Translations under genes and position numbers: made by a program
Shown here: in pieces, positions 900-40,771 of the stretch
How positions within the stretch are numbered: position 1 is the first letter of the stretch
Layout: each line of letters opens with the position of its first letter
Assembly: GCA_902761145.1 (NCBI GenBank)
Contig: CACWJA010000003.1
Coordinates: 92-64,091 of the forward strand
DNA from: an uncultured bacterium
GTDB taxonomy: Bacteria > Patescibacteriota > Saccharimonadia > Saccharimonadales > Saccharimonadaceae
DNA length: 64,000 nucleotides
Reading direction: 5' to 3'
Notes under the pieces: model-generated
What the model saw: only the letters and a program-made list of their open reading frames with translations
Told to the model about the DNA's origin: nothing
Database searches by the model: none

Positions 900-2882
900 T
901 CACTTAACTAAGCAACGTACAGGATATCCTATTGGTCTGTTACTTGCATAGGCTGGATTAAGATTATATTCACTAATGAACAAGTTATACGAAGTTCCAA
1001 TACCACCCACTGTACTGGTATGATATTCACCAGTACTACCGACCCAACTAAGTGTGGTCTGAGAACCATAGGTAATATATCCAGACCGAACCAACCATAA
1101 AGAAGCAATACGAATTTTGTTAAATCCATCCACATCGTAACCAATGCCTGTGGGTTCATTCATTATGCTCTCAGCCATTAAGAGAGCATTCCATTCGCGA
1201 CTAGAAGCAGTATTAGCACTATCTCGCCCAATAGGCAATCTCCATCCAGCTGGACAAATAGAATCTGGGGCGTTGTCATATTGCTCTGTCATACTCGAAG
1301 TATCATTGCTTACTACTGCAGCAGACCAGTTATAGTAATTACCAGCATGATTATGAGCACTACAGTCCGGGTGGGTTTCCTGACAAGCTGCTAGTGACAA
1401 ATATTGCATATCGTCATCTATAGTACCAGAGCTATAAATATATAATTCACCAGGATCAGCAGAACTAGGAATATTTCTACTAACTTCCCATTCATCCACT
1501 TCTCCGCCAGTAAATTGTATAGTGCTATTAACTGGCGTCCAGCTAGCAGATATATTGGTATTCTCTGGAGTTAATGTTGTCTGGCTGTTTAGATCTAAAT
1601 CTAGATTCTGTGTCATCCAAATATTACCATCGGCTAGTCTCGCTACATAATATTCCTTATCATCACGGCTATCTACGGCGATCACCTCATCACCTATGCT
1701 GAGAGTGCTTCCCCAGGTGGCTACATCTTGCATATATAGTACGTCTTCTTCCCATTGTGCATAGAGAGTCACGTTTGCGGATTCCCCCGCTATAGCTGCA
1801 TACTCGGCTTCGTCTGAGTAGGTGTCACCTGCTCCTTCTGCATCTGTGTCCCAGCTGGTGAAATGGTAGCCTTCTTTAGTATATGTGTTTTCTGGGAGGG
1901 TGATAGTGGTACCTGCTGGGATGATGATGTTATCCATATCTTCTCCTCCGTCATTACCATTGCCATTGAAGGATAGGGTGGTGATGTAATTTGGTGTTGC
2001 CGAGTAGTTTATACTGCTACCTTCATAGATGCCTTTGGGCGTGTCTGGAGTAATGTAGAAGCCATAGTAGATGGTAGTAGTATCATTCTCTTCTGTTTCT
2101 GAATAGTCGTCTATGGACTTAAGTATAGTAGGATTAGATTGGTCTGTAGATAGTGTTGTGTATACTTCACTGTTTTGGTCTTGTGGTTGTTCTAGTGATA
2201 GACCCCAGGTGTTATCTGTGAGAGTAGTAACAGGACTCCATCCCTTACCTACACCTTCTTCATTTGGTTCTATTGGTTCTGGTAGGGTTGCCATTGGGAT
2301 CTTGTTGGAAGAGTCTGTAGTAGATACTATGTCTGTACTATCTGTGTATGCAGTGAGAGTGTAGCCTGCTTGGGTAGTTTCTTCTACAGTTAGCCCTACT
2401 GGAAGGACTGCAAAGACTGGTTCGTCGCCTACTTCTATGGTGAGTTCTTCACTATCTACGTCTAGAGTGAGGGAGGAGGATTCGTTTCCTTCTGTTGCGT
2501 TGGTATTGCTTTTGCCACTTTTTGCTAATAGTATGGCTAGTGTACCTACTGAGGCTAGGAGAGCTAGAGCAGATAGGCTAGCAGTGATACGTTTTTTGGA
2601 GGTGAATACTGTTTTACATTGGTTTATTATATGGACTAGTTTAGTGACTTTACCTTGTTTTATATGTTTCTTATATAGTATTGCTACTATTAGTGACGAT
2701 AATAGCAAGAATAGTGCTGAGCCTATGATAGTAGCTTCTGTACCGCCTATACCATGAGTGAATAGACCCGTGTCTGGAGTAGAGATGTCTGTAGTGGTAG
2801 TGATACTATCAGTAGGGTCTACTGGTGTAAAACTACCTGGTTCTACTATATTAATCTTGATATTAGTGGTAGTAGTAGCCAT
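900..2882 (-). CDS. Membrane-anchored surface protein. It has an N-terminal TM anchor, one Listeria-Bacteroides (Flg_new-type) repeat and a C-terminal Fibrobacter-succinogenes-major-paralogous (FISUMP, TIGR02145-like) domain.
   Basis: 660-aa ORF with AGGAGG 7 nt upstream of the ATG. Repeat: FNGNG..TLPENTYTKEGYHFTSWDT..VTLYAQWEE. FISUMP motifs: DGNIWMTQNL, NYYNWSAA, CPAGWRLP..REWNALL, YPVRCLVK at the C-terminus. Confidence 0.75.
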   Translation of the reverse strand: MATTTTNIKINIVEPGSFTPVDPTDSITTTTDISTPDTGLFTHGIGGTEATIIGSALFLLLSSLIVAILYKKHIKQGKVTKLVHIINQCKTVFTSKKRITASLSALALLASVGTLAILLAKSGKSNTNATEGNESSSLTLDVDSEELTIEVGDEPVFAVLPVGLTVEETTQAGYTLTAYTDSTDIVSTTDSSNKIPMATLPEPIEPNEEGVGKGWSPVTTLTDNTWGLSLEQPQDQNSEVYTTLSTDQSNPTILKSIDDYSETEENDTTTIYYGFYITPDTPKGIYEGSSINYSATPNYITTLSFNGNGNDGGEDMDNIIIPAGTTITLPENTYTKEGYHFTSWDTDAEGAGDTYSDEAEYAAIAGESANVTLYAQWEEDVLYMQDVATWGSTLSIGDEVIAVDSRDDKEYYVARLADGNIWMTQNLDLDLNSQTTLTPENTNISASWTPVNSTIQFTGGEVDEWEVSRNIPSSADPGELYIYSSGTIDDDMQYLSLAACQETHPDCSAHNHAGNYYNWSAAVVSNDTSSMTEQYDNAPDSICPAGWRLPIGRDSANTASSREWNALLMAESIMNEPTGIGYDVDGFNKIRIASLWLVRSGYITYGSQTTLSWVGSTGEYHTSTVGGIGTSYNLFISEYNLNPAYASNRPIGYPVRCLVK

Positions 2883-3299
2883 ATTGTATTGCCTCCTAGT
2901 TATATGGTTAGATTGATTATTATATAAACGATATATAGATGAATATTGTTGTTCTATTTATAATTCGTTGCATCGAGGAACATTAAGCACAAACTTGGCT
3001 TTAGCGAGTTTGTGCGCCGGAGGGGCGAAGTGATGTGATAATATATCTACTTATCACATCACGTAGCTTCCGAGATGTAATGAATTATAAATATCACTTA
3101 TATATGGTCTCTATATATACTTATGTTTATATTGTACCCCCCCGATGGAAAGTCAAGGGGGTTTGCGGCTAGATATTGTTATTAATGCAATAATAATTCT
3201 ATGGTAAGACAACTAAAATAATACTTTTGGGACCGTACCTGAAAAAACGTGGAAGGTAGAGAGCGAAGCTCGCCTGTACGAACACTGTAGGAGTCGAGG

Positions 3300-3323
3300 A
3301 TATAAAAAGCTAGCTTTTTATAT
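3300..3323. terminator. Perfect 24-bp palindrome (ATATAAAAAGCT/AGCTTTTTATAT) overlapping the stop codon of 3318..4268; terminator-like hairpin
   Basis: 12-bp perfect stem with A/T runs, at the 3' end of a minus-strand gene. Confidence 0.4.
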
Positions 3324-4268
3324 CGAGTTCGCCTCTTTATCCTTGGATTTCCGCACCTTTTTTATTATTATAGTAACAAACCATACCAACAGTAGCGCTA
3401 TCAAGAATATCACTATAAATAGCAGCCAGAGTGGGCATATTACTATTATTTTTTCATTTACAGAGGTTTCACCAAATATAGTCACTGTTTGCTTTGCCCG
3501 GAATATTCCTACCACTGGCACATCTTCCCAGGTATTGAAAAAATATCTAGTAGTATCTGGTAGCACCAGTTTATCATTATCTTCACTTTCTTCATTAGTA
3601 TATATTTCTTCGTCCGAAAAAAGCGGCCACACTTGCAACACACTCTTAGCGTCTGTGTGTACATTACCAGTGTTTTTTACCCCCGCGCTTGCCACAAAAG
3701 GCGCACTCATCACGAATGTTGGCATATTATTTTCAAATACCTCGCCATATTCACGCGTCTGCCCTGCTACATCCGCCACCACCACCGACGCTACCGCACT
3801 AATGCCAGATATTTGTACACCATTATTATTTGCGCTATCAAAGCTAGTTACGTCTTGTGCCACTATTGCCGCATATTGTCCTCCAGCAGGCACATCCTTT
3901 GGTACCTTTACAGTGAAGCCAATTTCCATATTATCATTTGGTTTTAATGTGCCCTCAGTTTTATCCAAAGTAATCCAATCCACTATCTGCGTATATGTAC
4001 CCACTTTGTCAAATACCGGATCATAATCATCATTTGCCACGCTATATGGCGCTACATATAATTGAAACTTCAAATCATTCTCCGACATAGCCGGATTAGA
4101 CACTATCACGCTAGATCTATAAGTCTCCCCTGGTTTCAAAGAAATTCGTTGCGACGTCGGACCAAAAGTCAAGCTACTCTCTGTACCTTCCGCATGCACA
4201 TTACTTATGCATAGCGTAGCTACTACACTACATATTACTGTGCAAACAATTATTCTAATCCACTTCAT
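3318..4268 (-). CDS. Cell-surface protein resembling the DUF916/DUF3324 partner proteins of WxL loci (signal peptide, Ig-like body, C-terminal TM plus basic tail)
   Basis: Start moved to the ATG at 4268 (MKWIRIIVCTV.. signal peptide, GGAGG upstream); the longer track ORF would overlap the upstream gene. Body motif: VDWITLDKTEGTLKPNDNMEIGFTVKVPKDVPAGGQYAAIV. C-terminal LFIVIFLIALLLVWFV TM followed by KKVRKSKDK. Confidence 0.55.
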   Translation of the reverse strand: MKWIRIIVCTVICSVVATLCISNVHAEGTESSLTFGPTSQRISLKPGETYRSSVIVSNPAMSENDLKFQLYVAPYSVANDDYDPVFDKVGTYTQIVDWITLDKTEGTLKPNDNMEIGFTVKVPKDVPAGGQYAAIVAQDVTSFDSANNNGVQISGISAVASVVVADVAGQTREYGEVFENNMPTFVMSAPFVASAGVKNTGNVHTDAKSVLQVWPLFSDEEIYTNEESEDNDKLVLPDTTRYFFNTWEDVPVVGIFRAKQTVTIFGETSVNEKIIVICPLWLLFIVIFLIALLLVWFVTIIIKKVRKSKDKEANSI

Positions 4269-4281
4269 ATTCCTCCTCTCA

Positions 4282-5713: not shown

Positions 5714-6451
5714 TTATCGCGATCCCTCTACACCTACACTAGGCTCATTTGGACAATTAGCGAGCACACTATTTATCACATCCTTCTCAGCCTCTGTCAC
5801 CCACAACCCATATTTAAATTTTACCGATACCTGTCTTGCCACATACTGACATCTAAACTTCTTATTTGGCGGCAACCAAGTCGCCGCATCGCCATCAGAT
5901 TTCTTTCCATTTGCCGCCGCATCTACCGCCAGCAAATTTAGCGGATCAGTAGCTATATCGTATCGCACTTTAGTATCCATATATTGTGCGCCCTTCTGCC
6001 AGGCATCGCTCAGTGCCACCACATGGTCTATTTGTATACCTTTGGATATTTCTTCGCGCTTGTCAAACTTTTTGTGTTCCCCAGTGTACGGATCATCATA
6101 TTCTCCAGCCACCACGTTACATCCATCCAGTACGGCACTGTATCCAAACTCTCTTTTTAGTATTCTCTGGCGCAAATTACACCCATCCACCGTTGGCCAG
6201 CTACTATAAAACTCATCTCTGCTATATCCAGTCTTCGGAGCTCTACCTTTTACTTCTAACTTTTCCAATATGTCAACAGCCAACGGCACATTTGGGTCCG
6301 CCACAGTTACCGCTTCTGCAGCATATTCTAAGCCATCATCCTCCGCCTTCGTAACTACGGTTTCATAGCTCGCTGGATTTATTACCAGCCACACGATCAC
6401 ACCACCCAAAGCAAATAGTACACATACTAGCCTTCTAATCCTTAGCTTCAT
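5714..6451 (-). CDS. Secreted or membrane-anchored DUF1524/HNH-type nuclease
   Basis: N-terminal TM/signal (VCVLFALGGVIVWLVI). Motifs IQIDHVVALSDAWQKGA and DPLNLLAVDAAANGKKSDGDAATWLPPN are typical of the GmrSD-C/DUF1524 His-Me finger family. Confidence 0.7.
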   Translation of the reverse strand: MKLRIRRLVCVLFALGGVIVWLVINPASYETVVTKAEDDGLEYAAEAVTVADPNVPLAVDILEKLEVKGRAPKTGYSRDEFYSSWPTVDGCNLRQRILKREFGYSAVLDGCNVVAGEYDDPYTGEHKKFDKREEISKGIQIDHVVALSDAWQKGAQYMDTKVRYDIATDPLNLLAVDAAANGKKSDGDAATWLPPNKKFRCQYVARQVSVKFKYGLWVTEAEKDVINSVLANCPNEPSVGVEGSR

Positions 6452-6507
6452 ATCTCATATTATAACATTGCGATCGCCCCTTACTTAGAACAATCCCCAC
6501 GCACAAA

Positions 6508-6533
6508 ACAAGCCAGACATATGTCTGGCTTGT
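6508..6533 (-). terminator. Intrinsic terminator-like palindrome downstream of 6566..7855
   Basis: ACAAGCCAGACATATGTCTGGCTTGT is a perfect hairpin, followed on the minus strand by TTTG. Confidence 0.55.
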
Positions 6534-6565
6534 TCCAAGTTCCCGCCCTAGGTAAAGCGGTCTAC

Positions 6566-8127: not shown

Positions 8128-9960
8128 CTAGATACCAGATCCATCCCAATACTGGTTTCCAGAGTCACCGGAAAGTTCCGGCTCCTTCGCCTTTTGTGGC
8201 GAAGGTTTATTGGCGTCGTCGGCACCATTATTGTCTACAGCGGCGCCGCCGCCATCATATGAAGGATTGCTGTCATCGTTGCCAGTTTTCTGGTCATCGT
8301 TAATAACAGTCAAATCTTCTATGGCCTTTTCATATTCGATCGGTGTCAAATGATCCGAGTTCGAATCATTATCCTTGGCCGAATACTGAGCCCCTTCACC
8401 ATTATTGGTGTCAGGACCAGGCCCGGGGTCATCATTTTTACCCGAATTATCCGACAGAGACGGGTCCTTATTATAAGGGTTCGTCGGATTCGTCGGGCTA
8501 GGCGGATTTGTCGGACTGGGCGGATTAGAAGGTTCAGGCGAACCAGTGCCGGACGGTACAGTCGTACTTTCCGGCTCACCAGGCGGATTAGACGGTGTAG
8601 GTGGAGTCTTCTTTACGATATTAGGAATATCTTCCTTACCGTAAAACTCCGGTCTCTTATCATGGATATTAAATCCAATGACAAACCCTACCGGGTTTTT
8701 AGACTCTAATTGGTCCTTGGTAACGTAAGCAAGTATCAGTGCATCTTTCTTATACTGATAGCTTGCCTTTATACCGGCACGATCATTATTCGCCGCCGAC
8801 GAATTCAGAGGCCAATTTTCCACCGTTTGTCTTGCCTGTACGCCTTGGTCAATTAACCTTTCCAGGAAAGTGCACAACGTAGCTGCATACCTTCTGTACT
8901 CGGTAGAAACATAGATAGTCGATCGATCCCCATTACGGTACTCACACCAATAGGAGACGCCATTACTATCATTTTTCTTGACCATTCCGTCCAGCCATCC
9001 ATTGAAGTTGCCAATCCTAGTATCTCCGATCTTTTTATCACGTATGGCATTTGCCACCGTAACTCCGTAGACCGGATTCCGTAAAATCTCAACCTCAACT
9101 TCGTTAAACATTTCGCTAGACTTTTTAGACTTAAACCCATAGGTTAAAGCATCCGATATTCCCGTCCGCGATGTTCTTTTTGCATCATGCGGTGACAATG
9201 ATGATGTCAATAACTCTTCCGAGACGCCCTTATACTTCTCTACAGTCAACTGTTCAAGCTGTCCAGCCGTCAGTTTAACCGTTAGATTGTTTATGGCCTC
9301 AGTATGCGCCTGTTCACCATTACCGCCTGAATTACTAACTGCCGAAGCCTTTGGTAATCCTGCAATCTGCGCCCCGTTAACAGGTATCACTACCAAACTA
9401 ACGATTGTTAAGATCGCAAGGATAATAGCGACTACTCGCCAAACGCCTGCATGAGTACGACCATAAAGGCGCGTTGCTGTTACAAAAGCTGCAATACCCA
9501 CCACAAATGCAAACAACATCCATGGTGTAACAAAGAAGATCCAGGAAAGAACCCTGGCCTCCCACCACAATGCCATCACATGGACAGCAGATTGTGCCGC
9601 CAAAATAATAGCCGTAGCAAGAACCGCGAACCAAAACAGTTCGCTAAATCTTCTCACTCTATGCAGGAACCACATAGTGGCCCATAGCAACAGCAAGATA
9701 GTCGCCACAAAGAACACCAATCCCCACCACGGGGACTCAGTTGTCCTTGGCAAATAGTGGGCAAAGCCCGCAATAGCACCGATAATCAATGCCCTGGCGA
9801 AATTGCCAAAAGTATGCTTTTCGGTGAAGCTTCTTAGCCGCAAACACGGCCTACCGCCAATACCAGTAGCAGACACAATCCCGCCACCCGCAAACAGGCA
9901 GCCAAGTATGTCTGCGCCGATAAAGGCTAACATTCCAAAAACAATAATTTGCCATAACAT
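8128..9960 (-). CDS. Polytopic membrane protein with a large soluble domain and a Pro/Asn/Asp-rich low-complexity tail; function unknown
   Basis: Several N-terminal TM helices; PSNPPSPTNPPSPTNPTNP tract. Start set to the ATG at 9960 (AGGAGG 12 nt upstream); the track start at 10005 is a GTG with no SD. Confidence 0.6.
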   Translation of the reverse strand: MLWQIIVFGMLAFIGADILGCLFAGGGIVSATGIGGRPCLRLRSFTEKHTFGNFARALIIGAIAGFAHYLPRTTESPWWGLVFFVATILLLLWATMWFLHRVRRFSELFWFAVLATAIILAAQSAVHVMALWWEARVLSWIFFVTPWMLFAFVVGIAAFVTATRLYGRTHAGVWRVVAIILAILTIVSLVVIPVNGAQIAGLPKASAVSNSGGNGEQAHTEAINNLTVKLTAGQLEQLTVEKYKGVSEELLTSSLSPHDAKRTSRTGISDALTYGFKSKKSSEMFNEVEVEILRNPVYGVTVANAIRDKKIGDTRIGNFNGWLDGMVKKNDSNGVSYWCEYRNGDRSTIYVSTEYRRYAATLCTFLERLIDQGVQARQTVENWPLNSSAANNDRAGIKASYQYKKDALILAYVTKDQLESKNPVGFVIGFNIHDKRPEFYGKEDIPNIVKKTPPTPSNPPGEPESTTVPSGTGSPEPSNPPSPTNPPSPTNPTNPYNKDPSLSDNSGKNDDPGPGPDTNNGEGAQYSAKDNDSNSDHLTPIEYEKAIEDLTVINDDQKTGNDDSNPSYDGGGAAVDNNGADDANKPSPQKAKEPELSGDSGNQYWDGSGI

Positions 9961-10271: not shown

Positions 10272-10697
10272 TTACCCCCTCCTGGGGTGGGTTTTAAAAT
10301 ACTGCTTCATCTCCTCACGAGTGAGAAGGACCAGCTTTTTCTTTCTTCTTCCGTCAGCGTCGATGCCATCGTCAACTTCTCTTGCGAGAGCAGCCTTTAC
10401 CTTAAAGGTGGGGTCTGCCAGCATTTCGGCGTCCTCTTTGTCTTCGAGGAACTCATCGTCAGCCGCACCATAGCGGTACACCTTTACGACACTGGCGTTC
10501 TGAAGGTCAATGTATTCCCTAAGCTTCTCCTCAACCTCCTCTACGGTCGTAGCGCCTCTGGCGAAAAAAAACGCCTTTGCCAACTCTTCGAGGTTAGAAG
10601 TGTTAATTCGAGTGGATCTGCTAGGGTCTCTGTTGTCTCTTCTGCTAACCGTCTCTTCCGGCACATCTGTACCGAGAAGAAAATCCTTTAATGCCAT
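10272..10697 (-). CDS. Hypothetical acidic cytoplasmic protein (141 aa)
   Basis: Start set to the ATG at 10697 (MALKDFLLG..) with GAAGGAGG upstream. The longer track ORF adds an unlikely Cys/Met-rich extension. Confidence 0.55.
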   Translation of the reverse strand: MALKDFLLGTDVPEETVSRRDNRDPSRSTRINTSNLEELAKAFFFARGATTVEEVEEKLREYIDLQNASVVKVYRYGAADDEFLEDKEDAEMLADPTFKVKAALAREVDDGIDADGRRKKKLVLLTREEMKQYFKTHPRRG

Positions 10698-11028: not shown

Positions 11029-11070
11029 AGGAAAAATAAAAGCGAGAGTTTACTCTCGTATTTTGTTTTT

Positions 11071-11115
11071 ACTTGAAGTGAGGCCGAGGTAGTTTATCTA
11101 CCTCCACTCGCGCCA
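11071..11115 (+). other. Degenerate second copy of the tRNA-Gly 3' half (minihelix-like), sitting between two terminator hairpins
   Basis: ACTTGAAGTGAGGCCGAGGTAGTTTATCTACCTCCACTCGCGCCA compared with ACTTGAGATGAGGTTTCGACTACCTCCACTCGCACCA in the tRNA. Hairpins at 11043..11058 and 11126..11150. Confidence 0.7.
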
Positions 11116-11247
11116 ACACACAAAGAAATAGGCCAAAGGCTTATTTTTTTATTTCCATCCTCCTCAATGCATGTTCGATATATGATATAATAGCAACAGA
11201 GCATAAACACTATCAGCCTCATACTAAATAACAATTAAAGGGAAACC

Positions 11248-13548
11248 ATGGAAGATTATGAAAATCAAGCAAATTCGGGTAGCCACAGCGATGGATGGGA
11301 AAGTCTAAGCAACACCGCCGGAAACTTCGACAAAACTCAAGCAGCCCAAGCCATAAACGAAAAACTCAAGGAAATCGGATCTCAAAAGCCAAAATCCTAC
11401 GAAATGGAAAGTACGGTTTTTTTCTCCGAAGACAAAGTTTCCATAGATAGCGACTCATGGGGTGACTTTTACGAAGCAGCCTGGGACGACGGCGGAGAAA
11501 AAGATGCCCAATACGAGCAAAAAGTCAAAAACGCAATAGAAGAATGGAATTCTGCATCACAAGAAGAACGTATTGCGTACCTACAAACTGGCACTTTGCC
11601 AAACAGCATAAGCAAAGATACTATCAGCCTGCTTACTAGTGCTCGAATTATCAATTTCAAAGAGCCTAGTCGCACCGTAGCCCCACCACCACGACCGCCA
11701 GTCCCGCCACGGCCGCCAGTTCCGCCAATACCACCACAACCACCAATAGATACCGATACCGGCGACAGAAAAACTGACACCACAGATGATCCCAAAAGAG
11801 ACGACACAACGCCAACACCAGAAGACAAACCAACGCCATTCTGGAAACGTATTTTTGGGCCACGCAGAAAAACCCGTCACACAGAAAACCCTATACCGCG
11901 ACCAAAAGACACTTCAGAAGACGAGCCAACAATTCCGCAAGAAAAACCAACACCGCAACCAGAAGACCCTCCCACAGAAAATCCGAGTAATCATCCTCAA
12001 AAAGCCCCAGAAGAAGTTCCTACAAACCCATCAGAAACCACTCCAACTCCCCCTCAACCCGAAAAACCAGAGACGGAATCAAACCTAGAACAACCAATAA
12101 TGTATGAAATAATCAAAGACATAAAAGAAGAAGAACTACCACCAGAAGAAAGAGAAGAAATCAGAAAAATCTCCGGCGCAAAACTTGGCAACCTAAAAAA
12201 AGCCTTAGCAACCGGCGCCTTAATTACACTAGTAGCACTTGCGTTCATGAAACCGCCAGTTGAAATCACAGACAAAAACCACGCTAGCGTAGAAACAACT
12301 TCTCAAGAAGTAGTTACCATAACGAACGAAGTTCCAGAAAGAATAGAAGAGGTCGAGGTAACACCAGACGATGACCCAGAACTTTATCGACAATTGTCCA
12401 TTCAAAAGCTACTTGAAAACACAACACTCGGCGGAAAAATGCCTGTGGGTGAAAGTACAGACTATTGGGAATCACCAGATCATGAATTTGGTGGAGCCGA
12501 CAATCATGGCATAATTGACAATGAAGGGATTCGTCCCGCAGGCGAATACACTGTAGAACGCCTAGTAATATTAGATGCCAAAACCGGAGAATACCTTGGT
12601 AATTTCTATTCAGGCAATGGCGACTCCGGCACATTGGCAGATTTTGTAGAAAAAGTACAATCTGAAAATCCAGACCGAGAGATCACAGTGCATGTATGTT
12701 TTGATGATCCAGCCGCTGGATGGTCTGGCAATATTATCAATGGAGACGTTCCAATAATCGGAATAGGCCGTATCACGCAAAAGAAAGTAACACCAGGGCA
12801 CATTGAAACAACCACCATAACGGAAAATCACTCAGCTACCGGCGAAACAGACAATCTAGACAAAAACGGCACAATAGAGATTATAAACGACGACGGGACT
12901 AGCTCGTCTATAAACATAAGACATGAAGACGGGTCACTCTATCAACCAGGCGAAACAGTACTAGATTCTAACGGCAAATTGCATACTATACGCAATATAG
13001 AAGTTACCGAAAACGGAAAAAATGTACGCATTATATGGGAAAACGTATTGTGGGATGCGGCAATGTTGGCAATTGCGGGCTCCGGCCCAGCTGCTGCTGG
13101 TACCGGTATTTATATAGCCACACGACGACGCAACGGCGAGAGCGATACCAATGAAGAACAAGAAACACCTCCCGATGAAGAGCAGTCTACTACCCCAGAA
13201 CGTAGAATAGAAATAAGACGAGAAATGATGGAGTTAAATGCAGGCCAGCTGATTAACCTAGTCGACTTCTTTACGGAAACGTCTGGAGATAAAGCTGCAG
13301 AAATAGCCGCACAACTCGCCGAACGTGCTGGCACGAAGGTAGCAGAAGACAATCCTGCTGATAACCCAGAAGACCAAGGCATATTTGGAGCAATGACAGC
13401 CCCAGAAAAAACCGTAGCCAAAGCTCTGCTAACAAAACGTGACGAAGCTACACTCAGACACTTAAGCGAACTATTAGGGATCGAGCTAGAAGATTATGTC
13501 GCCCGCATACTAAATGAATCCCAAAATAATATCGAAACGGAGGAATAA
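11248..13548 (+). CDS. Hypothetical 766-aa protein with a Pro-rich region and two predicted TM segments
   Basis: Long ORF containing PPPRPPVPPRPPVPPIPPQPP, then an acidic/Pro-rich tract. TMs at GALITLVALAFM and AAMLAIAGSGPAAAGTGIYIA. Confidence 0.6.
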   Translation: MEDYENQANSGSHSDGWESLSNTAGNFDKTQAAQAINEKLKEIGSQKPKSYEMESTVFFSEDKVSIDSDSWGDFYEAAWDDGGEKDAQYEQKVKNAIEEWNSASQEERIAYLQTGTLPNSISKDTISLLTSARIINFKEPSRTVAPPPRPPVPPRPPVPPIPPQPPIDTDTGDRKTDTTDDPKRDDTTPTPEDKPTPFWKRIFGPRRKTRHTENPIPRPKDTSEDEPTIPQEKPTPQPEDPPTENPSNHPQKAPEEVPTNPSETTPTPPQPEKPETESNLEQPIMYEIIKDIKEEELPPEEREEIRKISGAKLGNLKKALATGALITLVALAFMKPPVEITDKNHASVETTSQEVVTITNEVPERIEEVEVTPDDDPELYRQLSIQKLLENTTLGGKMPVGESTDYWESPDHEFGGADNHGIIDNEGIRPAGEYTVERLVILDAKTGEYLGNFYSGNGDSGTLADFVEKVQSENPDREITVHVCFDDPAAGWSGNIINGDVPIIGIGRITQKKVTPGHIETTTITENHSATGETDNLDKNGTIEIINDDGTSSSINIRHEDGSLYQPGETVLDSNGKLHTIRNIEVTENGKNVRIIWENVLWDAAMLAIAGSGPAAAGTGIYIATRRRNGESDTNEEQETPPDEEQSTTPERRIEIRREMMELNAGQLINLVDFFTETSGDKAAEIAAQLAERAGTKVAEDNPADNPEDQGIFGAMTAPEKTVAKALLTKRDEATLRHLSELLGIELEDYVARILNESQNNIETEE

Positions 13549-15077: not shown

Positions 15078-15109
15078 GTTATAATTATAACATATACACG
15101 TCAAAACAT

Positions 15110-15185
15110 GGCTCCGTAGCTCAATGGATAGAGCAATTCCGTCCTAAGGAAAAGGTTGTGCGTTCGACTCGCACCGGAGTCACCA
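15110..15185 (+). tRNA. tRNA-Arg (anticodon CCT), CCA encoded
   Basis: Acceptor GGCTCCG/CGGAGTC; D-arm GCTC-AATGGATA-GAGC; anticodon loop GTCCTAA; T-arm GTGCG-TTCGACT-CGCAC. Confidence 0.8.
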
Positions 15186-15233
15186 AGTATGAAAAGAAGT
15201 CCCTTTGGACTTATTTTCATACTTAAGATAATA

Positions 15234-15367
15234 TCCGATGCGGGGAGAACGCTAGTTCGCCTGCTGTAGGAGATGAGGTCAAATCTAGAATTTATTCTAG
15301 ATTTACCGAAACGACGCCCAACAGAAAGACTTCGCGCAGCGAAGACTTACTCGCACCGGAGTCACCA
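15234..15367 (+). ncRNA. Candidate structured element closed by a tRNA-Arg-derived acceptor/T-stem minihelix and ending in ..ACCA (unclassified)
   Basis: TCCGATGCG (15234..15242) pairs with CGCACCGGA (15352..15360). Internal hairpins at 15247..15258, 15261..15266/15319..15324, 15281..15304 and 15330..15344. Homologous to 40553..40684. Confidence 0.5.
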
Positions 15368-15512
15368 AGTATATAAAAGAGCCCCTTGGGGGCTGTATTT
15401 AATTCAAGATAGTATTCAGTAAGAGGAGAGCATTAACGCCAGAATCATCAAATATAGAATACAACCTTAGCACGGATTTATCATATTATCCAACATATGT
15501 TATACTATTCTT

Positions 15513-35494: not shown

Positions 35495-36433
35495 ATGTAT
35501 ATTTCTGATCTTATCGAAGATTTTCTCGAACACCTAGAAATCGAGTCTGGCCGCAGCAAAAAAACCATCGACAATTATCGCCTATATCTAGAACGATTTC
35601 TCGAAATCTCACAAGAAATTCTGAACAAAGACGATATTAAGCCTACCGACATAGATAAAGAGTTGCTCCGCAAATATCGACTACGCCTCAATCGCTACGG
35701 TTCCGAAAACGGCACCGAAGACCTCAAGGTTATCACGCAAACATACCATCTCATCGCCCTGCGCGGCTTCCTCAAATATCTCACTCGTCGCGATATCAAG
35801 TCCCTCGATCCTTCCCTCGTAGACCTCCCACACGTCATTCGCAAACAAGTTACATTCCTGCATTACGACGAAGTCGAAGATATGCTAGAGCAAATCGATA
35901 CTTCCACCGAATCCGGCCTCAGAGATCGTGCCATTATCGAACTATTATATTCTGGCGGCCTACGCGTATCAGAGCTCATCAATCTAGACCGTGGCTCCAT
36001 CAACCTAGAGCGCCGCGAATTCATGGTGCGTGGCAAAGGTAGCAAAGATCGCCCTATTTTTATCAGCCAATCCGCAGCAGACAGAGTACAAGATTACCTC
36101 GATGCCCGCACCGATTCTCTCCCCGCACTTTTCCTCAATAACTCCCGCAACACCCAAACCATTGATACTTCTGGCAACTATCGCCGTATCACCGCCCGTA
36201 GCGTAGAGCGCATAATAGAAAAATACGCCCGTCTCGCTGGCATCACCAAACACGTCTCGCCACATACGCTAAGGCATTCTTTTGCTACAGACCTTCTTAT
36301 GAACGGAGCCGATCTCCGTGCTGTCCAATCCATGCTTGGCCATGCTGATATATCCACCACGCAAATCTACACCCACGTCACCGACGCCCACCTCAAGGAA
36401 ATACATGACAAATTCCATTCGGAAACAAAATAA
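35495..36433 (+). CDS. XerC/XerD-family tyrosine recombinase
   Basis: N-terminal SAM-like domain (FLEHLEIESGRSKKTIDNYRLYL). Catalytic motifs GLRVSEL, HTLRHSFATDLL, LGHADISTTQIYTHV. Leaderless-type start (TATAAT-N6-ATG). Confidence 0.85.
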   Translation: MYISDLIEDFLEHLEIESGRSKKTIDNYRLYLERFLEISQEILNKDDIKPTDIDKELLRKYRLRLNRYGSENGTEDLKVITQTYHLIALRGFLKYLTRRDIKSLDPSLVDLPHVIRKQVTFLHYDEVEDMLEQIDTSTESGLRDRAIIELLYSGGLRVSELINLDRGSINLERREFMVRGKGSKDRPIFISQSAADRVQDYLDARTDSLPALFLNNSRNTQTIDTSGNYRRITARSVERIIEKYARLAGITKHVSPHTLRHSFATDLLMNGADLRAVQSMLGHADISTTQIYTHVTDAHLKEIHDKFHSETK

Positions 36434-40429: not shown

Positions 40430-40506
40430 GGGGGTATAGCTCAGTTGGTCAGAGCATGCGTCTTATACACGCAGTGTCCTTGGTTCGAGTCCAAGTACCC
40501 CCACCA
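40430..40506 (+). tRNA. tRNA-Ile (anticodon TAT, reads AUA), CCA encoded
   Basis: Acceptor GGGGGTA/TACCCCC; anticodon stem TGCGT/ACGCA with loop CTTATAC; T-arm CTTGG-TTCGAGT-CCAAG. Confidence 0.85.
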
Positions 40507-40552
40507 TCGCAATGGAAATGAGGCTGTAAGCCTTATTTTTGTTGCGATAATT

Positions 40553-40684
40553 GGGCACTTGGATAAGAACAAGGTTCGCCCAGCGTAGGAGGCGAATATG
40601 AATCTAAAATTTATTCTAGATTCATTGAGGCGACGCCCGCTGGATTGCTTGCCTATGGCAAGCAAAGTCCAAGTACCCCCACCA
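40553..40684 (+). ncRNA. Candidate structured element closed by a tRNA-Ile-derived acceptor/T-stem minihelix and ending in ..ACCA (same family as 15234..15367)
   Basis: GGGCACTTGG (40553..40562) pairs with CCAAGTACCC (40669..40678). Hairpins at 40567..40577, 40580..40585/40638..40643, 40598..40625 and 40645..40665. 56-bp direct repeat at 40488..40543 and 40666..40721. Confidence 0.5.
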
Positions 40685-40771
40685 TCGCAATGGAAATGAG
40701 GCTGTAAGCCTTATTTTTGTTTTCCAGCGCCAAATGCCTCACCAATAATAAAAATCACCCACTGGTTTGTC

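Follow-up and report, generated by a model that had tools for sequence, protein, structure and literature searches.

We analyzed a 64,000-nt stretch (the window) of contig CACWJA010000003.1 (assembly GCA_902761145.1) from a Saccharimonadaceae bacterium. Two tRNA genes in the window, tRNA-Arg(CCT) and tRNA-Ile(TAT), are each followed on the same strand by a small unit that carries a copy of the tRNA's own 3' end. We refer to this unit as E and to the compared loci by L-numbers (L106, L118, etc.). The coordinates of its parts are given in Table 1. Read from the 5' side, an E locus consists of the tRNA, a hairpin terminator, an AT-rich leader of 5-15 nt, a segment (a') complementary to the tRNA's 3' part, hairpin P1, the first strand of P2, the block GTAGGAG, a 3-bp helix (P2b), and hairpin P3. 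These are followed by the block CGACGCCC, the return strand of P2, hairpin P4, 2-5 nt, the tRNA copy (position 58 through the CCA), and in most cases another terminator or a run of T. The unit measures ~180 bp, of which ~110 nt (P1, P2-P2b-P3, and P4) form a conserved core. Pairing of a' with the tRNA copy creates the closing helix P0.

A sequence-only reading of the window had described a 24-bp direct repeat at the Arg site, a terminator-like hairpin next to each repeat copy, and pairing of 15234-15242 with 15352-15360. We found the repeat to be exact, with similarity continuing at 86% to 42 nt, into the terminator (to 15208). Both hairpins were recovered, the second with its T-rich tail, and P0 forms between TCCGATGCG (15234-15242) and CGCACCGGA (15352-15360) with eight of nine positions paired and one A-C. 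P1, P2, the P3 palindrome, and P4 are present as described, and the minimum-energy fold agrees with them; the analysis adds P2b between P2 and P3, and P2 of this copy contains one C-A mismatch. The whole Arg copy spans 15225-15372, and a covariance model of the family (R1, described below) matched 15229-15367 with 120 bits. The same architecture had been claimed for the tRNA-Ile site, where we confirmed a second copy (whole span 40544-40688) with perfect direct repeats. Minimum-energy folds recovered P0-P4 in both copies (z = -3.8 for Arg and -5.2 for Ile). Within the window, the conserved blocks are confined to these two sites. The weak third match in Table 1 retains P1, UAGGAG, P2b, and a P3 hairpin. 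The probable remnant of an older unit behind the Arg copy scored 32 in local alignment, compared with 20.7 +/- 3.6 for shuffles (maximum 36), and is clearer in the related locus L130.

Table 1. Positions of E units and related inserts at tRNA 3' ends (window coordinates unless a locus is named).
Feature	Position	Strand	Basis
tRNA-Arg(CCT), intact; 3' part from position 58 is repeat copy 1	15110..15185	+	ARAGORN; Rfam tRNA 58.5 bits
Direct repeat copy 1, Arg (tRNA position 58 to CCA + 5 nt)	15167..15190	+	repeat search
Terminator-like hairpin 1, 18-bp arms, bidirectional	15185..15224	+	repeat search and terminator prediction
Short AT-rich leader AAGATAATA, -10-box-like	15225..15233	+	sequence; leader sequences differ across the family
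a' (P0 5' strand), inverted complement of tRNA 61-69 (T-stem 3' strand and first 4 nt of acceptor 3' strand)	15234..15242	+	sequence
P1 hairpin GAAC-GCTA-GTTC	15247..15258	+	stem invariant in 34 aligned copies; loop length differs
Long arm: P2 15261-15266 / 15319-15324; GTAGGAG 15266-15272; P2b 15272-15274 / 15310-15312	15260..15324	+	alignment
Long arm, continued: P3 hairpin 15278-15307 (palindrome 15281-15304); invariant CGACGCCC 15312-15319	15260..15324	+	19/22 pairs of P2 and P2b-P3 compensated
P4 hairpin CTTCGC-GCA-GCGAAG	15330..15344	+	hairpin in 37/38 copies, with many differing stem sequences
Direct repeat copy 2, Arg (tRNA 58-76 + 5 nt); P0 3' strand 15352-15360; CCA 15365-15367	15349..15372	+	repeat search
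Terminator-like hairpin 2 (15380-15394) and T-rich tail	15380..15403	+	terminator prediction
Probable decayed 5' part of an older second unit (AAGATAGTATTCAG..AAATATAGAATA..)	15405..15500	+	local alignment
tRNA-Ile(TAT), intact	40430..40506	+	ARAGORN, Rfam
Direct repeat copy 1, Ile: 56 nt, tRNA position 58 through terminator T-tract	40488..40543	+	repeat search
Second family member: a' 40553-40563, P1-P4, tRNA-Ile 3' copy	40549..40684	+	covariance model, 113 bits
Direct repeat copy 2, Ile: 100% identity to copy 1	40666..40721	+	repeat search
Weak, probably decayed or relocated member, without upstream tRNA, between two surface-protein genes	3243..3371	+	covariance model, 21 bits, E-value 2e-4
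Core-less relative after tRNA-Gly(TCC): AGTG-aGGCC-GAGGTAG-tttat-CTACCTCCACTCGCGCCA, terminator on each side	11076..11118 (region 11029-11150)	+	sequence comparison
Long-hairpin insert	L119 ~653-770; L121 ~6423-6537; L131 ~1560-1677(-); L142 ~3990-4105(-)		another small repeat family at the same sites

Two observations concern the Ile site itself. The 3' arm of P3 in the Ile copy (ATTCTAGATT; 40600-40623) resembles the Arg variant (15281-15304) and not other Ile-type copies, and it yields an A-C mismatch. This shared arm hints at gene conversion between the two window copies. Separately, the TAT anticodon of the tRNA-Ile gene is genomically encoded, so that AUA would be read without lysidine; it is kept in L126, L128, and L139.

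E belongs to a sizeable family. Scanning a genome collection with the pattern GTTCGCCNNNNGTAGGAG(9-11 nt)ATCTA returned 17 loci, 16 of which come from Saccharibacteria / Candidatus Nanosyncoccus from ruminant-gut metagenome assemblies. All 16 have an identical architecture. When P3 was left unconstrained in a scan of metagenomes, 19 of 20 matches were further true copies. We built R1 on 34 copies and used it to search the collected loci, which brought the family to at least 42 copies from Saccharibacteria (Candidatus Nanosyncoccus) genomes and rumen metagenomes. Most of these (35/42) lie 35-55 nt 3' of a same-strand tRNA, or 114-224 nt if another small unit intervenes. Fourteen tRNA species serve as hosts: Arg-CCT, Arg-TCG, Ile-TAT, Lys-CTT, Asp-GTC, Tyr-GTA, Leu-GAG, Gly-TCC, Glu-TTC, Glu-CTC, Thr-CGT, Ala-GGC, Ser-TGA, and Val-TAC.

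We compared E to catalogued sequences. At the gathering score, Rfam 15 returned only tRNAs and one LSU rRNA fragment from the window. With E-values of up to 10, the tRNA alone stood above noise in 15100-15450, and no tmRNA, YrlA, self-cleaving ribozyme, or retron msr match was obtained. The statement in the sequence-only reading that the organization matches no described family thus holds against Rfam 15. Searches of phage and plasmid collections with blastn gave no E match. A 14-base pattern picked out 105 stretches in viral contigs, none of which had the other conserved blocks; all were therefore rejected as chance matches. As far as Rfam and literature searches show, no 180-bp non-coding unit was previously known that combines a conserved structured core with an arm complementary to its target and fitted to 14 tRNAs; the att logic itself was known. 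The family lacks an Rfam entry and accounts for recurrent tRNA-fragment repeats that confuse tRNA annotation in metagenome-assembled Saccharibacteria.

Wherever its boundary is readable, the direct repeat begins at tRNA position 58 (+/- 1), directly after TTCG of the T-loop, and the tRNA is intact. In most copies the repeats end at the CCA plus 1-3 nt and the terminators on the two sides are unrelated. Segment a' complements tRNA positions 59-69, sometimes beyond. P0 is found in nearly all copies, and its sequence shifts with the type of the adjacent tRNA while pairing is kept. It spans the 3' strand of the T-stem and no more than the first 2-6 bases of the acceptor, leaving 7-11 nt, including the CCA, unpaired. 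The acceptor/T-arm minihelix of the sequence-only reading is therefore borne out as a pairing, usually of tRNA 59-69 only, and not as a full 12-bp minihelix. The same reading equated the 5' strand of P0, with one substitution, to a fusion of the tRNA's own acceptor and T-stem 5' strands. In the family sequences, a' is the Watson-Crick complement of the 3' strand and does not copy those 5' strands: tRNA-Arg(TCG) has U or G at position 50 opposite U64, yet a' has A there. By hand, we also compared a' to the tRNA copy and the distal copy; L110 favors the tRNA copy, one position in L106 favors the distal copy, and L108 is ambiguous.

The fold of E is real and strongly covarying. Standard pairs occupy 93.7% of cells in the 34-sequence alignment, compared with 73.3% in column shuffles and 31-50% when partners were slid by 1-3 columns. 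Changes on both sides were found in 26 of 34 pairs (alignment, on which RNAalifold was run too). In P0, seven of eight pairs changed on both sides and 89% of cells are paired. P2, P2b-P3, and P4 likewise vary compensatorily; all four pairs of P1 are constant. The loop of P3 is frequently CUUG, CUCG, or UUCG. Among the blocks that had been noted as common to the two window copies, GAAC..GTTCGCC, GTAGGAG, and CGACGCCC are invariant throughout the family, and GATAAT and the sequence of the P3 palindrome are not conserved.

Several explanations for individual parts of the fold were discarded. The P3 palindrome is not a protein-binding site, since its sequence is wholly replaced in some metagenome copies with pairing retained. 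P1 is not a LexA (Cheo) box of the form CGAAC-N4-GTTCG, as its spacing ranges from 3 to 7 nt. Reading P1 and P0 together as a mimic of the full T-arm duplex fits only GAAC/GTTC and positions 59-69; the two bases 5' of GAAC mismatch the T-loop. Analogies to bridge RNAs, kink-turns, and group I guide sequences are unsupported by the invariant loops.

A covarying fold could be that of an RNA. The sequence-only reading had listed a structured RNA with a tRNA-like end among its options, and the fold and covariation it called for are present. In this explanation, E would be a host-selected small RNA gene trailing the tRNA, transcribed from its own weak promoter or by terminator read-through and trimmed to ~135 nt by tRNA end-processing enzymes. 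P0 and the NCCA tail would imitate the acceptor/T-arm of the neighboring tRNA, making the RNA a decoy, sponge, or substrate for a reader of tRNA 3' ends. Besides the covariation, the invariant unpaired blocks resemble a site for protein or tertiary contacts, orientation is fixed with terminators on both sides, many leaders contain TAAT or TATAAT-like -10 motifs, the P3 loops named above are frequent, and the core is conserved well above synonymous sites. E is also retained in near-identical strains: ten contigs encoding an identical neighboring protein all carry it, with 0-3 single-nucleotide polymorphisms (SNPs).

The substitution pattern points the other way. In the model-aligned set, G-U and A-C occupy 44 and 34 cells, respectively, and arose in 19 versus 19 distinct events. 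In a control, the stems of 59 tRNAs at the same loci gave 59 G-U versus 2 A-C. Equal frequencies are not the mark of a selected RNA; they are expected for DNA pairing, or for copies whose fold counts only during mobility. At 15242, nine of ten strains have A in place of G, a SNP that likewise makes an A-C. The CCA is absent from about 6 of 34 copies, and the unpaired 3' tail diverges from the tRNA in L106, L108, and L110. No sigma-70-type promoter was predicted for E, including the Arg leader at 15225-15233; its leaders are -10-like at most, and both terminators are bidirectional. Equal wobble, loss of CCA, and the lack of a predicted promoter together oppose an RNA that is now selected as a tRNA mimic. 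The missing Rfam match and three observations presented below (four congeneric species lack E at the same tRNA, distal copies decay freely, and the unit's phylogeny is at odds with the host's) also count against a host-selected RNA, which we regard as a somewhat unlikely explanation. If it is correct, E would represent a new small RNA family of the Candidate Phyla Radiation whose members are matched to tRNAs. A covarying fold without wobble tolerance suggests instead that a single-stranded DNA form matters, or that the fold matters only during movement.

The unit does not appear to encode a protein. An open reading frame (ORF) in the Arg copy had been put forward as a possible small gene. We rejected this candidate because no in-frame ORF is conserved across homologs: 17 of 36 copies lack a start codon within 16 nt 3' of GTAGGAG, and the others vary in start offset and ORF length. 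Because no ORF is conserved inside the unit and no protein partner is evident, E must be non-autonomous.

We compared tRNA 3' ends among related genomes and found both filled and empty sites. The tRNA-Arg(CCT) gene beside a syntenic SurA-like gene bears E in seven species (the window, L106, L113, L117, L118, L120, and L130). Used as a query, this flanking SurA-like protein found at least 120 relatives, and the matches listed are all at least 72% identical. In four congeneric species (L153, L155, L157, and L159), whose SurA-like proteins are 72-77% identical, the Arg-CCT site has no E, and R1 gave no match in 107 kb (eight loci) from those species. The site in L153 is empty; L155, L157, and L159 hold other small inserts that are also bounded by tRNA 3' copies. 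Thr-CGT, Val-TAC, and Ser-TGA sites are occupied or empty depending on the genome.

Units also accumulate in arrays. Both L107 and L138 contain tandem E units, and truncated distal copies occur in the window, L130, and L142. In L138, E units and tRNA-like 3' copies bracket a 355-aa ORF (8277-9344, plus strand) with no match in Pfam, PADLOC, or PHROGs; it is possibly cargo caught in the array. The order of two unit types is reversed between L131 and L142, and P2 is chimeric in the L131 copy. Between L118 and L130, the SurA-like proteins share 87% amino acid identity and four-fold sites are 41% identical, while E is 99% and the terminator and leader are 98% identical. The corresponding values for the window and L130 are 96%, 58%, 92%, and 81%. 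By these sequence comparisons, the phylogeny of E conflicts with that of its hosts, which shows horizontal exchange of the unit. More broadly, core identity is 77-94% where that of four-fold sites is 18-35%, which means constraint, exchange, or both.

We tentatively favor reading E as a miniature integrative cassette that is non-autonomous, recombines within the 3' segment of the tRNA, and folds in single-stranded form. The unit would enter by recombination within this segment, crossing over immediately after TTCG of the T-loop. Its own tRNA copy and terminator would rebuild the tRNA gene, and the displaced chromosomal 3' end would land behind the core. Successive entries would build arrays with the newest unit beside the tRNA and older, decaying units farther out. 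As a single strand, a' would pair with the tRNA 3' copy (P0) and close a four-way junction. The folded strand would then display a duplex with the sequence of the target site, akin to the folded attP of CTX phage and to integron attC sites, and the invariant unpaired blocks (GAAC/GTTCGCC, GTAGGAG, and CGACGCCC) may serve as a handle for a recombinase supplied in trans. We favor DNA as the nucleic acid that folds, and we infer its strand, the enzyme, and the re-setting of a'.

The cassette reading accounts for the T-loop boundary of the repeat and for the unrelated terminators on the two sides of most copies. It also accounts for arrays in which proximal units are intact and distal ones decayed, for gain and loss among congeners, and for horizontal exchange. 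Miniature tRNA-targeting elements were one of the three options of the sequence-only reading, and this option is the best supported by the T-loop repeat, the intact tRNA, the arrays, presence and absence among relatives, and exchange; no cognate integrase or full-length element was found to complete it. If the cassette reading is true, E units would be the smallest integrative elements described, in bacteria with ~1 Mb genomes, and would point to recombination whose specificity lies in the fold of the substrate itself, a property of interest for programmable insertion.

A number of observations weigh against an integrative cassette. Re-setting of a' to each new tRNA fits no known recombinase mechanism. 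The excess of core identity over four-fold-site identity could reflect selection for a host function and not recent exchange. Perfect repeats through the whole terminator (56 nt at the window Ile site and 62 nt in L118) are better explained by duplication, in tandem or of the target site, than by an att copy carried on the element. Mimicry of the target duplex holds for P0, and in P1 only GAAC/GTTC is T-loop-like. Across 225 kb of loci, none of the copies has a linked integrase, transposase, HUH enzyme, or reverse transcriptase. Finally, no excised circle, larger parent element, or phage or plasmid copy was seen in collections of phages, plasmids, and viral contigs.

A more specific proposal, which we consider unlikely, is that E is a programmable, nucleic-acid-guided cassette. 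A constant scaffold would carry an exchangeable pair of a' and tRNA copy that reconstitutes the duplex of the target gene for a recombinase encoded elsewhere. Specificity for at least 14 tRNAs would come from base complementarity and not from protein-DNA recognition, and the GGCCG type and other inserts described below would be sister cassettes.

The perfect repeats raise the alternative that E spreads through an RNA copy, as a short interspersed nuclear element (SINE) does, by target-primed reverse transcription with a reverse transcriptase and a nuclease acting in trans. The transcript (leader, a', core, tRNA 3' copy, and terminator) would anneal by its 3' end to the tRNA gene. A bottom-strand nick at T-loop position 57/58 would prime cDNA synthesis, and a second nick after the terminator would duplicate the segment from position 58 to the terminator end. 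The 56-nt and 62-nt repeats begin at position 58 and stop exactly where the T-tract does, at the end of a primary transcript. Position 58 in its methylated form (m1A58) is a classical stop for reverse transcriptases, and the repeat boundary would match this stop if these organisms carry m1A58. Neutral decay after insertion would also predict equal G-U and A-C. The repeats of most copies, however, end at the CCA plus 1-3 nt beside unrelated terminators, which is a misfit with target-site duplication, and re-setting of a' is left unexplained. No endonuclease partner is known. The genus does encode reverse transcriptases. In Candidatus Nanosyncoccus alces (L157, 2037-4269), one such gene (3109-4269; RVT_1, 386 aa, best PHROGs match phrog_1423) follows that for a 368-aa HTH_3 protein and could be a diversity-generating retroelement or a defense reverse transcriptase. 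The 21 kb examined around this gene contain no E. Taken together, we judge spread through an RNA copy quite improbable.

It is also conceivable that no dedicated mechanism exists. E would then be a by-product of replication template switching at terminator hairpins, or of tRNA-anchored recombination after natural transformation, and its apparent covariation would result from hairpin-templated correction of quasi-palindromes. The order A ... a' ... A is the classical duplication and inverted duplication mark of two template switches. Copies of the tRNA 3' end are also present in several unrelated small inserts, namely the GGCCG type without a core, inserts of the GCTCGTCGRACC type, and the 33-nt tandem units of L139. 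Synteny is broken 3' of the units, the window contains type IV pilus and competence-type genes, and G-U and A-C are equally frequent. On the other hand, a ~110-nt core with three invariant unpaired blocks, present at 14 tRNAs with 77-99% identity despite saturated synonymous sites, could not be a repeated accident, and template correction is unable to conserve unpaired motifs. We therefore consider this explanation very improbable for E as a whole. A by-product route may account for the first origin of the direct and inverted tRNA copies, but not for the conserved core.

We searched for an enzyme that might act on the cassette. The window encodes a single XerC/D-like recombinase of housekeeping type (35495-36433), which is distant from both E copies. 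With this protein as the query, phmmer found no tyrosine recombinase homolog among ORFs of at least 90 aa in the 225 kb of loci. Neither a transposase nor an HUH enzyme or reverse transcriptase was revealed by Pfam scans of 40 window ORFs (38 distinct). When ORFs from 35 loci were clustered all against all, the groups followed tRNA-context synteny, with no evident partner of E; one family spans several tRNA contexts. The other window genes are of housekeeping kind and include those for a SurA-like protein, a ClpB-like ATPase, type IV pilus proteins, an ABC transporter, NDK, and EF-P.

We compared E to known mobile elements and structured RNAs. Elements that integrate at tRNA genes are kilobase-sized, integrase-carrying islands with one or a few targets. 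E resembles such elements and their non-autonomous derivatives (tyrosine-integrase att sites, cis-mobilizable elements [CIMEs], and the tRNA-fragment arrays that successive integrations leave) in its tRNA 3' repeat starting in the T-loop, the regenerated tRNA, tandem accretion with distal decay, and presence or absence among relatives. An att pair is recognizable, as the tRNA 3' repeat flanks the insert with an intact tRNA at one end, and occupied and empty sites exist among relatives. In contrast to these islands, E is geneless at ~180 bp, no cognate integrase was found in the unit, in the loci, or nearby, and its covarying conserved core is combined with an inverted complement of the target that differs for each of 14 tRNAs. 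To our knowledge, known integrase families keep to one or a few targets.

Integron attC sites and the folded attP(+) of CTX phage are imperfect inverted repeats conserved in structure and not in sequence, with a stem that reproduces the duplex site. E shares these properties, small non-replicative cassettes in arrays, an enzyme that would be encoded elsewhere, and the absence of a G-U over A-C bias that DNA predicts. It differs in that its target is a tRNA gene and not attI or dif, its "loop" is a conserved 110-nt four-way junction, its single-stranded DNA role is conjectural, and no IntI was found. E (GAAC..GTTCGCC) does not follow the R-box consensus GTTRRRY/RYYYAAC, and no XerC/XerD dif-like arms were recognized.

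Repetitive extragenic palindromes (REP/REPIN), which depend on RAYT enzymes (Y1 HUH), are likewise short, long-maintained, non-coding intergenic hairpin repeats near terminators, and their GTAG-type head beside a palindrome recalls the GTAGGAG preceding P2b-P3. Unlike REPs, E lies strictly at tRNA 3' ends between tRNA-derived direct and inverted copies, is estimated at a handful and not hundreds per genome, and has no RAYT gene in the window or loci. Palindrome-associated transposable elements (PATEs) of the IS200/IS605 group and TnpB omega-RNAs offer a hairpin (as P4) a few nucleotides before the right end, insertion just 3' of a short conserved motif (TTCG in E), and flank-derived sequence placed after a scaffold, as with omega-RNA guides. 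However, PATEs make no direct repeats, the left-end hairpins of E (terminators) are not conserved, and the TnpA or TnpB needed there was not found in loci or window. An omega-RNA guide identical to a resident tRNA gene would also hit the host's own genome.

Among tRNA-like modules (the tmRNA domain, YrlA, mascRNA, and viral 3' structures), an acceptor/T-arm-like helix with an NCCA tail closes a larger domain, as in E. The helix of E differs from these in copying whichever tRNA lies upstream, in having only 2-6 acceptor pairs and no T-loop, and in lacking an Rfam match and the wobble signature of a selected RNA, with a CCA that is dispensable in some copies. A miniature inverted-repeat transposable element (MITE) was ruled out, since the a'/A pair differs with every tRNA and repeat lengths are not fixed (~9 to 62 nt). 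A retron non-coding RNA was also rejected: the closing stem is present, but no reverse transcriptase adjoins any copy.

E is not the only small insert at tRNA 3' ends. The core-less relative after tRNA-Gly(TCC) in Table 1 is built from 4 nt of acceptor 5' strand, GGCCG, the T-stem 5' strand, a short loop, and the tRNA 3' copy. GGCCG-type units also follow Arg-CCG (L108), Gly-CCC (L113), and Ala-CGC (L138), and tRNA-Gly(TCC) bears a full E in L123, L127, L133, L137, and L141. The GGCCG type looks like a sister family that likewise adapts to the local tRNA. Of the E-free Arg-CCT sites, three carry short inserts with the motif GCTCGTCGRACCTWSCGGTGCG, at L155 ~9855-9899(-), L157 ~9836-9899(-), and L159 ~3300-3400(-), which are fused directly to tRNA-Arg position 58, giving a T-arm without TTCG; the direct repeat of the L157 insert comprises tRNA 58-76 and the T-run. 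The inserts at these sites comprise a GCTCGTCGRACCTWSCGGTGCG type of 36-45 nt and a short E-like unit without P2 and P3. Inserts of the GCTCGTCGRACC type likewise carry tRNA 3' copies. Other small inserts have 7- and 11-nt repeats. In L139, tRNA-Thr(CGT) is followed by two tandem 33-nt units (13239-13330), each closing with the tRNA's last 7 nt. In the same locus, a T-arm-like copy whose loop holds an insert of ~30 nt lies 3' of tRNA-Val(TAC) (10442-10500). The T-stem of this copy resembles another species' Val allele, which suggests a foreign origin.

A conserved long-hairpin insert of ~105 nt (ATTTGAGTTAAAAGCCGGCA...TGCCGGCTTTTAATCTCAAAT) lies directly 3' of the CCA of Tyr, Leu, and Thr tRNAs, or of a distal tRNA copy. 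Away from the tRNA genes, the window encodes a protein with a GmrSD C-terminal domain (5714-6451, minus strand), a type IV restriction-like defense gene amid an otherwise housekeeping stretch.

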